Virus record (IMG/VR): IMGVR_UViG_2974778606_000001
Location: 68,886 to 132,885 of that record
From: a virus
Lineage: Duplodnaviria; Caudoviricetes
Reading direction: 5' to 3' (one strand)
Length of the DNA: 64,000 bases
A program made the translations under genes and the position numbers. Position 1 is the first letter of the stretch; the number at the start of each line of letters is the position of its first letter. The notes below the pieces were generated by a model. It searched no databases, was not told the DNA's origin, and saw only the letters and a list, made by a program, of their open reading frames with translations. Below are positions 10,374-45,704 of the stretch, in pieces.

Positions 10374-10444
10374 CCCGGCATAGTGTAGTGGAAACACGAT
10401 ACATTGTCAGTGTATTATCGAGGGTTCAATTCCCTCTGCCGGGA
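10374..10444 (+). tRNA. tRNA-Asp(GTC), atypical A73
   Basis: ATACA-TTGTCAG-TGTAT. Confidence 0.8.
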
Positions 10445-10448
10445 CTTT

Positions 10449-10558
10449 GCGGGTCGAAAGAGTAATCGGTTATCTTCCCAATTGAAATGAGAAACGGCAG
10501 GTTCGAATCCTGCAAGGGCCAAGGAACGGCCAACTCCGATTCTCACCAATATATCCGC
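10449..10558 (+). ncRNA. Y RNA-like ncRNA 3 (YrlA-like, contains T arm)
   Basis: GCGGGTCGAAAGAG..CGGTTATCT; GCAGG-TTCGAAT-CCTGC; 3' CTCCGATTCTCA..ATCCGC; about 770 nt upstream of Ro60. Confidence 0.8.
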
Positions 10559-15548: not shown

Positions 15549-15809
15549 GTGGCACCACCAAAGATACCAACTCAAATAGAAGCGAAATTAGTAGTGGCTA
15601 TACTCTGTGGAGTGATTGGCTCACTACTAGCAAGCTTTCTCATGATGGGTTGTATCGCAGAGACAAATGAAACTAGCAAGATGAAGGCATGTGTCTCTAA
15701 GGGTTATGAGTGGGTAGCAGCGCCCGGTGGTCCTGAGTGCAAGAAGCCGGTTGACATAGTGTTTCAACCAAGCTACGATAGTAACAACGAAACAGACAAG
15801 CCCCGTTAG
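15549..15809 (+). CDS. Small membrane protein starting 2 nt after tRNA-Glu
   Basis: TM helix; GTG start. Confidence 0.6.
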   Translation: MAPPKIPTQIEAKLVVAILCGVIGSLLASFLMMGCIAETNETSKMKACVSKGYEWVAAPGGPECKKPVDIVFQPSYDSNNETDKPR

Positions 15810-15950: not shown

Positions 15951-16023
15951 GCGGGTGTCGTCTAGCGGCTAAGGCCCCATCCTTACAAGATGGTCATCGG
16001 AGGTTCGAGTCCTCTCACCCGTA
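15951..16023 (+). tRNA. tRNA-Val(TAC)
   Basis: CCATC-CTTACAA-GATGG. Confidence 0.9.
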
Positions 16024-16110
16024 CGAGTCCCCGTCAGAGGCTAGAGGATGACGACCTACATTCTGACAGCAGTTGGGCACACCATAGTTAGGATAGCCAC
16101 GAACTGCATT

Positions 16111-16187
16111 GGGTTTGATTGGTATGACGTTAGTGAAAGCCGACAATGGACCGCTAACCGCAGAGGGTTCGAATCCCTCCAAATCCA
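16111..16187 (+). ncRNA. tRNA-like RNA resembling the tmRNA tRNA-like domain
   Basis: GGGTTTG/CAAATCC-A acceptor with G3.U70, stemless D loop, perfect T arm. Confidence 0.65.
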
Positions 16188-16367
16188 CGTTGGAAGGTGT
16201 TGAGGTGAGAGAAAAGTTGGTCACTCAGTATCTCTGCTCATTGTGTAAGGTCTAACCAACCATCACACCAGGCACGAATCTGGCCCTTCCGTAGACTTGA
16301 TGATAAAGACCCCTAAGCTGATATTCCATATCAGCCGGACACTTGGCGGTGACGCCTTTCATCATAT

Positions 16368-16442
16368 GCTCCCATAGACCAATTGGCAGGAGTCGCACGG
16401 CTTAGACCCGTGAATGTGTCGGTTCGAATCCGACTGGGAGTA
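16368..16442 (+). tRNA. tRNA-Leu(TAG), short variable loop
   Basis: CACGG-CTTAGAC-CCGTG. Confidence 0.85.
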
Positions 16443-16581
16443 CTCCATAACTACAAAGACAAGGATACAGGTGGCAGCCTGCCCCAAGGGTGGAAAGCAC
16501 GATTGGAAGATATGGTCTGGAAAGTATCGCTGTCGTAAGTGTGGTGAAACAAGTAAGATACAGCCTGCTTAGGTTGTTTAT

Positions 16582-16660
16582 GCGTCTGTGGTGGAATGGT
16601 AGACACGCTGGTCTTAGGAACCAGTTCTTCGGAGTGCAGGTTCGAGTCCTGTCAGACGTA
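16582..16660 (+). tRNA. tRNA-Leu(TAG)
   Basis: CTGGT-CTTAGGA-ACCAG, variable arm. Confidence 0.9.
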
Positions 16661-16713
16661 CTTTGACTGTCATCCGGAGTCAGTCAAATGCATATAGGGT
16701 CGCTCCCTATATG

Positions 16714-16980: not shown

Positions 16981-17052
16981 GGTCCTTTAGCTGAGATAGA
17001 TTAGCGATAGCCTGAAAAGCTTTAGAGGTCGGTGCGATACCGTCAGGGACCA
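16981..17052 (+). tRNA. tRNA-Phe(GAA), non-canonical T loop
   Basis: Loop CTGAAAA; T loop TGCGATA. Confidence 0.8.
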
Positions 17053-17258: not shown

Positions 17259-17333
17259 GCCCCAGTATTGGCCCGGCCTTCTAAGCCAGAGGCGCATAAT
17301 GGAAAGATGCAGGTTCGAATCCTGTCTGGGGTG
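17259..17333 (+). tRNA. Atypical tRNA-Arg(TCT) lacking a normal D arm
   Basis: GCCCCAG/CTGGGGT acceptor, GGC-CTTCTAA-GCC, canonical T arm. Confidence 0.6.
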
Positions 17334-18117: not shown

Positions 18118-18192
18118 GGGCGGTTAGTGTTAATGGTAGCACGAGTGCTTTGCACGCATTAAGCAGGGGTTCGAATCCCCTACTGTCCACCA
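18118..18192 (+). tRNA. tRNA-Ala(TGC), CCA encoded
   Basis: G3.U70; AGTGC-TTTGCAC-GCATT. Confidence 0.9.
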
Positions 18193-18272
18193 GAACTGGG
18201 TTTGATTCAACAAAGGCTTAGGCTTAGAGGTGTACCACTCGGTTCTTAACTTCCTGCGCAGGGAGGTGCAAA

Positions 18273-25176: not shown

Positions 25177-25248
25177 GCATGTAAGCCAGGGATAAGCTAG
25201 GCGGGCCTGTAAAGCCCTACCTCGATGGTTCGAATCCGTCTACATGCA
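25177..25248 (+). tRNA. tRNA-Tyr(GTA), short variable loop
   Basis: GGGC-CTGTAAA-GCCC. Confidence 0.8.
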
Positions 25249-25336: not shown

Positions 25337-25408
25337 GGTGGCTATAGCATAAAAGTAATGTTCAAGGCTGTGAACCTTGAGAAGAGGGGGCGGTACCCTC
25401 TAGTCACC
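25337..25408 (+). tRNA. tRNA-His(GTG), G-1:C73, odd T loop
   Basis: CAAGG-CTGTGAA-CCTTG. Confidence 0.8.
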
Positions 25409-28086: not shown

Positions 28087-28354
28087 GGGAGTGACCAGGT
28101 TTCGACTGGTGTGGATGATTGTAGTTTGCAGCCTGACATTGAGGAGATGTCATTAAAAAGCCTCAACCCTATAAATGCCAACTCTAAGTTCGCATTCGCT
28201 CTTGCTGCCTGACGGTAGCTGAGCGGGGCTAGTGGAGCGGCCTGGCAACAGAAGGCTCCACCCACAAACTTTCTCGCAACACCCCTTGACACATGGCTGT
28301 GTATAGACTACTGTTTGAAGCGTCAGGACGGGGGTTCGATTCCCCCCACTTCCA
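28087..28354 (+). ncRNA. ssrA: tmRNA, tag (A)ANSKFAFALAA encoded at 28177-28212
   Basis: GGGAGTGA..GGTTTCGAC 5' end, G3.U70, GGAC-GGGGGTTCGATTCCCCC 3' end, ATAAAT before the GCC resume codon, LAA-stop. Confidence 0.95.
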
Positions 28355-28673
28355 CTGGAGGAATAATGCCTAAATGGATGAGGCTCAAGTCAACTGGTGA
28401 TTATCCGTTTCATCAGCGAGTTCTCTCGTCATATGAGAATGGTTTCGATGAGGGCCCGGTGGCTAAGTTTACCGCCTTCGTCATTGCTGTTATCGTCATA
28501 GTACTGGGAATGGTAGTCTTTATCATCCCACTACTCATCTGGTTTGCAATCAGGGACGGAGTGAAGAAGCTCTTTGGACTACGAAACGCTGATGACAAAG
28601 TGGATGGAAGCAATCCGCAGGATTAAGCAAGGTTGACACAAGACAAGACATCGAGTACAGTTGTACGATATGT

Positions 28674-30416: not shown

Positions 30417-30486
30417 TGTTACGTAGCTTAATTGGCAAAGCTGTCCAAGGCCATGGACGATATGGGTTCAAATCCCATCGTAACAG
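30417..30486 (+). ncRNA. tRNA-like RNA with 6-nt anticodon loop
   Basis: TGTTACG/CGTAACA acceptor, D and T arms normal, GTCCA-AGGCCA-TGGAC. Confidence 0.65.
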
Positions 30487-30565
30487 CAATATTTATTAGA
30501 CTTCATAATCTCTCCCCTGCTATACTGTAGATGCCTAATCCATCAGAGGCAGGAGGATTGATTAA

Positions 30566-35876: not shown

Positions 35877-35958
35877 GCGCCCATGGTGGAATGGCAGACA
35901 CACTAGGCTGAGACCCTAGGCTCGAATGAGCGTCCGAGTTCGATTCTCGGTGGGCGTA
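35877..35958 (+). tRNA. tRNA-Leu(GAG)
   Basis: CTAGG-CTGAGAC-CCTAG, variable arm. Confidence 0.9.
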
Positions 35959-35959
35959 C

Positions 35960-44654: not shown

Positions 44655-45341
44655 GTGTCGAGAACGCTTGGGCCTTGATGCAGATGCAGAAGACTGAGGA
44701 GCTGTTCAGGGAATTCAGTTTTGAACCAGGTACAGGATTCACCTGCGACCTTGTTAAATACCCTGCAACGCAGCACGACGTTCCTAACTATGCACTCAGG
44801 GCGTACAGCAGCACCTATGACAATCTCACTGAGCACCAGAGGATGCTAATCGCAGAACAGATTGGCAGACTCATTCAGTCGATTCGTTCCCTTGGTGTAA
44901 ACTGTATATTGGAGGTCCATGATGCACCGGGAAAGTCAGGTAGTAAGGGTAGAAACGGATGAAGGTCTGGCGCTCGGAATAATTGAGAAGGTATTGGCGT
45001 TTCATTGTCTGGTGAAGTATTGGGATGATGAGGGCGAATGGCAGCTTGATTACTTCGAGCATGACGACGTTGAGGTCATTGGCGAAATAGGATATGAGGT
45101 AGAGTGAGAGAACTAGTTTGTGATAGCTGTGGGGGTCAGAGGTTCAGCCTAACTTCTGTGCAGTCAAAACTTCTCGGAACCATGTCTTTCAATCTGTGCA
45201 ACGGATGCAAGGACGATGGAAGAGAGCCACGATGGCTCATTGTTTTGGCGGCACGGAATGGTCAGGATGTGAGTCCCTGGCTTGACAACAAGCTATACGA
45301 TGGAGCAGAAATCAAGCAGGAGGATTTGAATTAAGCCTCCA

Positions 45342-45397
45342 GGCCGGGTATACTAGGCACATCTAGGGAACTATGGGGTTCGAATCCCTACCGGCCG
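45342..45397 (+). ncRNA. Minimal 56-nt tRNA-like element
   Basis: GGCCGG/CCGGCC acceptor, GGG-TTCGAAT-CCC T arm, single central hairpin. Confidence 0.45.
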
Positions 45398-45704
45398 CAA
45401 TACAATCCCCTTGAGGGGAGGAAAGTGTACGTTGAAAGCGATGAAGATGTATCTCAGTGTATAAGAGATTTGACTAAGGAGATTTGGGCAACTATTAAGA
45501 TGGTGCTGAGGGCCCAAGCAACATCAGAGCAAATATCTGATGCTGCTTCTAGGGCTAAATTTCTCCGTCTATACATTGACCGATATCGCTTCAAGAGGTT
45601 CGATTCGCTGACCGAAACTGAACTTTGGTTGGCTCAGGAGGTCGCAGACGCGGTTGAAGACTTGATTGATTGACTTTTAACTCATCTGTGATTACAATTC
45701 AGGT

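Follow-up and report, generated by a model that had tools for sequence, protein, structure and literature searches.

Comparative sequence analysis identifies a 77-nt element at 16111-16187 (+) in the genome of a Streptomyces phage as a real, conserved and unannotated RNA gene. It supports the assignment of this gene as a tag-less mini-tmRNA, composed of the tRNA-like domain (TLD) of tmRNA, helix 2a, an A-rich loop and a helix 2b stub. Positions refer to the window, i.e. the whole 64-kb stretch of DNA analysed; the phage genome from which it was taken measures 132.9 kb and has direct terminal repeats. The source is a cluster-BE Streptomyces phage (Stanwilliamsviridae, Boydwoodruffvirinae), whose nearest record is Mildred21.

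The element and its place in the tRNA array

About 40 tRNA genes and one full tmRNA were found on the + strand of the window with ARAGORN and Rfam. The element at 16111-16187 is called neither by ARAGORN nor by Rfam at gathering thresholds, and none of the short ORFs running over it matches an annotated CDS in the 18 relatives fetched. The sequence quoted in the initial annotation and each of its pairings were verified at these positions on the + strand. The element, its parts and its surroundings are as follows:

15751-15779 (+), promoter-like site TTGACA-17-TACGAT, 5' of the tRNA-Glu/Val/mini/Leu run, by consensus match alone
15951-16024 (+), tRNA-Val(UAC), upstream neighbour in the same array (ARAGORN)
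16111-16187 (+), putative mini-tmRNA element, 77 nt, between tRNA-Val(UAC) and tRNA-Leu(UAG)
16111-16117 (+), 5' strand of the acceptor stem, G1-G7 (GGGUUUG), with G3 of the G3.U70 wobble; 7/7 pairs kept in 10 BE variants, 5:68 covarying from U-A to C-G
16118-16124 (+), stemless D-loop analogue AUUGGUA with an invariant GG (BE alignment)
16125-16135 (+), 5' strand of helix 2a, U15-G25, including the GAC base; double changes in 5/7 core pairs (GUUAGUG/CGCUAAC)
16136-16139 (+), 5' side of the A-rich internal loop, AAAG; invariant in BE phages, family consensus (U/A)AAG
16140-16149 (+), apical hairpin CCG-ACAA-UGG, the helix 2b stub with its tetraloop; 95.5 % paired in 53 sequences
16150-16151 (+), 3' side of the internal loop, AC; A40 invariant in BE phages, next base C or A
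16152-16162 (+), 3' strand of helix 2a, C42-A52, abutting the T stem without a variable loop (BE alignment, model search)
16163-16179 (+), T arm GAGGG-UUCGAAU-CCCUC; 50:64 covarying from A-U to U-A in BE phages, 99.6 % paired in the family
16180-16186 (+), 3' strand of the acceptor stem, CAAAUCC with U70, pairing as G1-C72, G2-C71 and G3.U70
16187-16188 (+), discriminator A73 and an encoded C, no full CCA; C after A73 in 52/53 family members
16368-16443 (+), tRNA-Leu(UAG), downstream neighbour in the same array (ARAGORN)
28087-28357 (+), resident full-length tmRNA with the tag ANSKFAFALAA* (ARAGORN; RF00023 90.8 bits)

As described in the initial annotation, the acceptor GGGTTTG/CAAATCC-A provides G1-C72, G2-C71, G3.U70 and A73, all of them kept in relatives, the D region is stemless and contains GG, and the T arm is perfect. 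The T loop agrees with the GUUCRANYC of tmRNA. The 7-bp helix GUUAGUG/CGCUAAC also stands, but the 16-nt loop that had been placed on it resolves into the internal loop AAAG/AC, the 3-bp stem CCG/UGG and a tetraloop, and the CGCA taken for a 4-nt linker is base-paired to the last nucleotides of the D region (U15-A52, G16-C51 and an A17.G50 mismatch). Helix 2a is about 11 pairs long and lies against the T stem as does helix 2a in tmRNA. At its base U15-A52 and the A17.G50 mismatch are invariant among the BE variants, and 16:51 covaries; in the D-loop analogue of the same variants G11, G12 and U13 never change, and U..A at positions 9 and 14 is exchanged for C..G in concert. All three pairs of the apical stem demonstrate double changes in the 53-sequence alignment and the tetraloop varies (ACAA, ACGU, AAGA, CACG and others), so that the hairpin reads CCC-ACGU-GGG in Tomas and Naboo and CCC-AAGA-GGG in one IMG/VR relative.

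The features of a cloverleaf were not found: the element has no D stem and its apex is the variable tetraloop. The mRNA-like domain is missing, the whole element comprising 77 nt with 16 nt between the strands of helix 2a, and no tag was reported by ARAGORN. There is no room in the mini for a resume codon or a tag frame, and there are no pseudoknots.

The D-loop analogue is 1-2 nt shorter than the canonical GGUUUCGAC of tmRNA and most mini-tmRNAs. The D region of the window element retains GG and GAC, UUC is missing, and of the tandem G.A/A.G only A17.G50 is kept. The tandem G.A/A.G at the base of helix 2a (GAC...GGA) is kept in the Karimac and Tomas types, as in helix 2a of tmRNA; the window lineage has CGCA in place of the GGAC linker. 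The window variant thus appears somewhat derived, having drifted from the canonical SmpB-facing motifs, and its recognition by SmpB could be altered.

tRNA-Val(UAC) adjoins the element in all fetched BE relatives, its end lying 4 nt 5' of the element in Samisti12, and tRNA-Leu(UAG) starts 6 nt 3' of the element in Warpy and Jay2Jay. Among the 3' ends read in the window, CCA is encoded in tRNA-Ala(UGC) at 18118-18207 (+) and is not encoded in tRNA-Glu(UUC), tRNA-Val(UAC), tRNA-Ala(GGC), the tmRNA or the mini. The first 10 nt of the mini, GGGTTTGATT, recur at 18198, 5 nt 3' of tRNA-Ala(UGC). A second copy of the mini at that position was considered and rejected, as there is no model match there and a 24-codon hydrophobic ORF with a ribosome-binding site is present instead.

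Several other tRNA-like sequences were observed on the + strand of the window. A 72-nt sequence at 25177-25248 combines a T arm and a perfect 7-bp acceptor (GCAUGUA/UACAUGC) with what looks like a CUGUAAA anticodon loop (GUA, Tyr), but the long variable arm found in bacterial tRNA-Tyr is missing; the sequence is not called by ARAGORN or at the Rfam gathering score and reaches 19 bits with R1, the covariance model built from the BE elements (see below). An 80-nt sequence at 10442-10521, right after tRNA-Asp (10374-10445), has a good T arm and an imperfect acceptor with an A3.G mismatch; it has no ARAGORN or Rfam call and reaches 22 bits with R1. The 58 nt at 45341-45398, far from the tRNA array, form a GGCCGG/CCGGCC closing helix and a T-arm-like hairpin GGGGUUCGAAUCCC (16.6 bits with R1) and may be a minihelix-like element or a product of chance.

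Three tRNAs, at 16981-17052, 17259-17333 and 25338-25408 (+), are found by Rfam alone (44, 29.5 and 45.6 bits) and missed by ARAGORN, and two of the three have the unusual T loops GGUGCGAUACC and GGGGGCGGUACCCUC. The gene at 30417-30487 (+), 'tRNA-???' with a 2-nt anticodon (6-nt anticodon loop) in ARAGORN, is a tRNA in Rfam at 46 bits. A long variable arm is typical of bacterial tRNA-Leu. It is present in the Leu(GAG) gene at 35877-35959 and missing from the two tRNA-Leu(UAG) genes at 16368-16443 (76 nt) and 16582-16661 (80 nt) (+).

Conservation and kinship with tmRNA

BLASTN located the element in 80 Streptomyces phage records (81-99 % identity). Its position between tRNA-Val(UAC) and tRNA-Leu(UAG) is shared by these phages, and nearly all of the records have no annotation under it. 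Among the sequencing runs listed as containing the region none is recorded as RNA, and four metagenome runs gave only short contigs from related phages. The 18 relatives fetched represent three genera, Samistivirus, Karimacvirus and Tomasvirus. The flanks cannot be aligned between genera; conservation starts exactly at G1 and stops at A73 and one C. Ten distinct BE-phage sequences constituted alignment A1, and the structure tested comprised the acceptor, the extended helix, the apical 3-bp stem and the T arm. In this alignment 97.7 % of cells were paired and 11 pairs showed compensatory double changes. When the partners were slid by 1-3 columns, 0-3 double-change pairs were obtained, and none of 500 shuffles reached the observed values. 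The folding-energy z-score of -1.7 is unremarkable on its own.

The covariation that the initial annotation had proposed to look for in related phages is therefore present, in support of every helix. The compensatory changes and the sharp borders of conservation show that the element is under selection. The decayed tRNA-Val(GAC) which the annotation had named as the outcome that would speak against it was not seen in the relatives: the GAC forms the base of helix 2a, and where AAG or GAU takes its place the partner strand compensates. An intron-containing tRNA and a decoding tRNA lacking the D arm were rejected along with the decayed tRNA-Val(GAC), on account of the variable tetraloop at the apex and the position of the GAC within a covarying helix.

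R1, built from BE elements only, recognises a single mini in the window (101 bits) and ranks a tRNA second (29 bits). In one related genome, Coruscant (NC_070782), the mini was not found, the best R1 match (25.5 bits) probably being a tRNA, and no tmRNA was found above threshold (best RF00023 match 16.6 bits). An unannotated tRNA match lies in Coruscant at locus L019 721-791, where relatives carry tRNA-Val. Karimac (MH590599) has further R1 matches at 96026-96129 and 100232-100313 (33.7 and 30.4 bits; 104 and 82 nt), both near the full tmRNA of that phage; these may be additional tRNA-like RNAs.

At permissive thresholds the tmRNA model RF00023 aligns with the element end to end if its middle 306 positions are skipped, with a score of 21.6 bits (E 5e-7 over the region searched), and in an E-value scan it outscored all other tRNA-clan families on the element; RF00005 gave no match at its gathering score. 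The original reading as the tRNA-like domain of tmRNA without the mRNA domain agrees with this end-to-end match and with the silence of ARAGORN and RF00005. Among the homologs, the Karimac type scores 42.1 bits with RF00023 and the other BE types tested 30-35 bits, and the Tomas element has no match at E 0.01 or better. The RF00023 gathering threshold of 47 bits is reached neither by the window element (21.6) nor by those of other BE phages (30-42).

The 12 pairs of helix 2a in the RF00023 consensus lead into a 3-nt 'GAa' internal loop, beyond which lies helix 2b. The mini has this layout, and its AAAG/AC loop and CCG stub are therefore a remnant of tmRNA beyond the TLD. Bacterial tmRNA (SsrA, RF00023) and the mini have in common the TLD, the alanine identity elements, helix 2a with its non-Watson-Crick base pair(s) and the A-rich loop before helix 2b, whereas the mini is without the resume codon, tag ORF, stop codon and pseudoknots (about 190-300 nt) and cannot template a tag.

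The TLD of the resident tmRNA is unlike the mini, with the acceptor GGGAGUG/CACUUCC and 20.3 bits on R1. A recent internal deletion of this tmRNA was rejected as the source of the mini, since its TLD reaches 20 bits on R1 vs up to 60 bits for the minis of other phages. An attP or ssrA fragment was also rejected, as the element has both halves of the acceptor, with covariation between them, and does not lie in an integrase context.

Relatives in other phages and in organelles

The initial annotation was made unaware that this type of molecule is already published and is widespread in phages. "Mycobacterium phage DS6A (TLD only)" was listed by Hudson, Lau and Williams in 2014 (PMC4131195). According to PMC4131195, which cites Mao et al. 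2009, a molecule similar to that of DS6A is a strong inhibitor of tmRNA in E. coli whether or not it can be charged, and may act by titration of SmpB. The 2025 tmRNA database paper repeats the inhibition and adds CDS-less plastid and mitochondrial forms; no Streptomyces phage form is named there (PMC11915505). The DS6A type is thus a known, little-studied kind, and the window element is a new and somewhat derived member of it, unusual in standing beside a full tagging tmRNA.

The DS6A gene (JN698994 28478-28560; tmRNA Website tmID 11587) reaches 43.2 bits with RF00023 and 37.3 bits with R1, the best R1 match outside the BE family and above every tRNA. Like the BE mini it is a phage-borne gene of about 80 nt that has no tag frame and combines a 7-bp acceptor containing G3.U70 with a C after A73 and a stemless, GG-containing D loop. 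It likewise has helix 2a, an AAA/AC internal loop, a CCG-CACG-CGG stub with a tetraloop, and a T arm. Unlike the window mini it keeps the canonical GGUCGAC D loop (RF00023 43 vs 21.6 bits). The mini is the sole RF00023 match in the DS6A record and no full tmRNA was found there, while the BE mini is accompanied by a full tagging tmRNA. The DS6A gene lies between the protein-coding genes gp33 and gp34, the BE gene within an array of about 40 tRNA genes, and DS6A encodes a tyrosine integrase whereas the BE phages are described as lytic (PMC12509530).

The IMG/VR viral contigs were scanned with the motif TCGAC, 25-50 nt, GTTCRANTC, 8 nt, TCCA, which gave at least 120 matches. Among the matches listed, about 70 are complete 65-92-nt genes with a perfect 7-bp acceptor, and R1 recovers at least 45 members at 31-60 bits. 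The family occurs across phages of very different G+C content. Canonical minis are also present, unannotated, in another group of cultured Streptomyces phages (LuckySocke, GiJojo, Alone3, pSt2308 and BRock). Alignment A2 was made of 53 family sequences; 90.9 % of its cells are paired and 20 of the 24 pairs demonstrate double changes. G1-C72, G2-C71 and G3.U70 are present in 53/53 sequences, where U70 was fixed by the search pattern and G3 was free (A3-U70 would have passed the filter). A73 is followed by C in all sequences but one and CCA is encoded in 10/53, neither of which was constrained by the pattern.

Most minis are solitary, with no tRNA nearby at 32 of the 45 IMG/VR loci, and ARAGORN misses them. 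The minis of 12 near-complete carrier genomes score 41-67 bits with RF00023, ten of them above the gathering score of 47 bits though they are without the tmRNA middle, and a full tmRNA stands beside the mini in one of the 12. In a group of very small viral genomes, the contigs L076 (mini at 1844-1921), L050, L089, L116 and L152 (about 16 kb, rated complete), the mini lies between the large terminase and portal genes and hence inside the late structural operon. A conserved neighbour protein was not found in an all-against-all comparison of neighbouring ORFs, in which at most 8 of the 45 loci share one; these eight belong to one small phage group, with terminase, portal and prohead protease as neighbours.

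CDS-less tmRNA of jakobid and other mitochondria was reportedly described by Jacob et al. in 2004. These organellar forms (jakobid and other mitochondrial RF02544; Mallomonadaceae plastid forms of about 65 bp, PMC11915505) are likewise reduced to the tRNA-like part, have no tag frame and are kept with SmpB. They are often permuted and in two pieces and come from reductive evolution of the resident ssrA, whereas the phage mini is an extra gene in a cell with a full tmRNA. Engineered TLD fragments are known from crystal structures with SmpB and on the ribosome (Gutmann 2003, Bessho 2007 and Neubauer 2012, as cited in PMC3968760). They share with the mini the acceptor, the T arm, the D loop and a loop-closed helix 2a, and in vitro, according to the same source, they bind SmpB, accept alanine and reach the A site together with EF-Tu. 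The natural phage mini differs from these laboratory constructs in that it also keeps the internal loop and the helix 2b stub.

Possible action on ribosome rescue

Trans-translation is the main bacterial ribosome-rescue pathway and a drug target. The mini probably diverts or blocks this host rescue-and-tag system. The mechanism which we favour, with a confidence somewhat better than even, is that the mini-tmRNA is made with host factors, competes with full tmRNA for SmpB and stalled ribosomes, and inhibits or short-circuits trans-translation. The mini would be transcribed with the neighbouring tRNAs and cut by RNase P at G1, its 3' end would be trimmed to A73(C) and completed by the host CCA-adding enzyme, and host AlaRS would charge it with alanine via G3.U70 and A73, the known determinants of this enzyme (PMC3968760). 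Host SmpB would bind the D-loop/T-loop elbow and helix 2a; for the TLD, a crystal structure of alanyl-TLD-SmpB-EF-Tu on the stalled ribosome is available (Neubauer 2012, as cited in PMC3968760). The complex would compete with full-length tmRNA for SmpB; together with EF-Tu it would also compete for stalled ribosomes, whose A site is empty. As the mini has no message to resume on, no proteolysis tag could be added, so that it would act as a competitor of full tmRNA and trans-translation would be inhibited or short-circuited during infection.

SmpB (PF01668), RF-1/ArfB (PF00472) and Pth (PF01195) are all absent from the source phage genome, and SmpB is absent from all 45 other carrier records. 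Since no carrier phage has its own SmpB, any SmpB partner must be that of the host.

Strict selection acts on the alanine identity set and on the C that begins CCA, which argues that charging matters. Inhibition in E. coli needs no chargeable molecule (as reported in PMC4131195), and SmpB titration therefore leaves the strict alanine identity set unexplained. As titration needs no charging, an action at the level of the ribosome, through blocking or through tag-less rescue, is a serious alternative. The co-resident tagging tmRNA would need the same host SmpB, which is awkward for a pure inhibitor unless the two RNAs act at different times or to different ends; its presence in BE phages is explained by neither version. 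A bolder proposal, possible but doubtful, is that alanine charging is essential and that the mini acts on the ribosome, as a tag-less rescue RNA or a 'poison' substrate and not as a passive SmpB sponge. In BE phages it would then form a two-RNA system with the tagging tmRNA, and the A-rich loop would be a contact to the ribosome or SmpB.

Productive tag-less rescue, taken by itself, seems unlikely, although it has several observations on its side. Alanyl-mini with SmpB would take over the nascent chain and the peptidyl-RNA would be released or hydrolysed (Pth, ArfB or drop-off); ribosomes would be recycled, truncated and possibly phage-encoded proteins would gain one alanine and no degradation tag, and the mini would complement the tagging tmRNA. 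The strict conservation of the alanine identity set and of the encoded C74 would be accounted for, these being unneeded for pure SmpB titration (PMC4131195), as would the fact that BE phages and one further large phage have both the mini and a full tmRNA. CDS-less tmRNAs kept with SmpB in mitochondria and some plastids are assumed to have a rescue role (PMC11915505), and in one subgroup the gene between terminase and portal stands among heavily translated late genes. Against this, the only experiment cited saw inhibition of tmRNA and not rescue (Mao 2009, as cited in PMC4131195), and the source phage has no Pth or RF-1/ArfB-type protein with which to release the product. Such release would have to proceed without a stop codon. 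We know of no mechanism by which peptidyl-TLD would be released in this way, which also counts against this explanation.

It is distinctly improbable that the mini is a tRNA-shaped alanine carrier or decoy for another target, such as AlaRS, EF-Tu, the CCA-adding enzyme, a defence toxin aimed at tRNA acceptors or an aminoacyl-tRNA-dependent transferase. AlaRS needs the acceptor helix alone, so that any G3.U70 minihelix-like RNA is chargeable (PMC3968760), the motifs facing SmpB have diverged from the canonical form in the BE variant, and BE phages have other non-canonical tRNA-like genes. However, the conserved GG of the D loop, helix 2a with its A.G, the A-rich loop and the helix 2b stub are specific to tmRNA and are not determinants of AlaRS, and the carriers, diverse in G+C and without a common partner gene, fit a target common to all bacteria, such as SmpB and the ribosome.

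The 3' part of ssrA serves as attP in many mobile elements, and the gene lies within a tRNA array and is not called by standard gene finders. Nevertheless, a decayed tRNA or tmRNA pseudogene, a processing signal of the tRNA array or an ssrA-type attachment site left behind with no role of its own is hardly credible and is largely refuted by the covariation, with compensatory changes in every helix across three phage genera and dozens of unrelated contigs, both ends of conservation sharp and both acceptor halves present, a reportedly lytic life style of BE phages (PMC12509530), a solitary position or one between terL and portal with no integrase beside it elsewhere, and minis of other phages (60 bits) closer to the element than the resident tmRNA (20 bits).

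With inhibition or short-circuiting of trans-translation as the favoured role, a phage RNA reduced to the tRNA-like head of tmRNA would be a natural competitor of this pathway, ready for use. DS6A is no isolated case, as about 80 cluster-BE phages, another group of Streptomyces phages and dozens of unrelated viral contigs carry a gene of this design without annotation; such genes escape the pipelines used to annotate phages (ARAGORN, tRNAscan, Rfam at the gathering score). The strict selection on the chargeable end points to a charging-dependent function which the published SmpB titration leaves unexplained. BE phages are a good system in which to ask for the roles of the mini and the tagging tmRNA. 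If the proposal of two RNAs acting on the ribosome is true, one RNA would tag and the other would spare or block, and together they would adjust what becomes of the products of stalled ribosomes in the course of infection.
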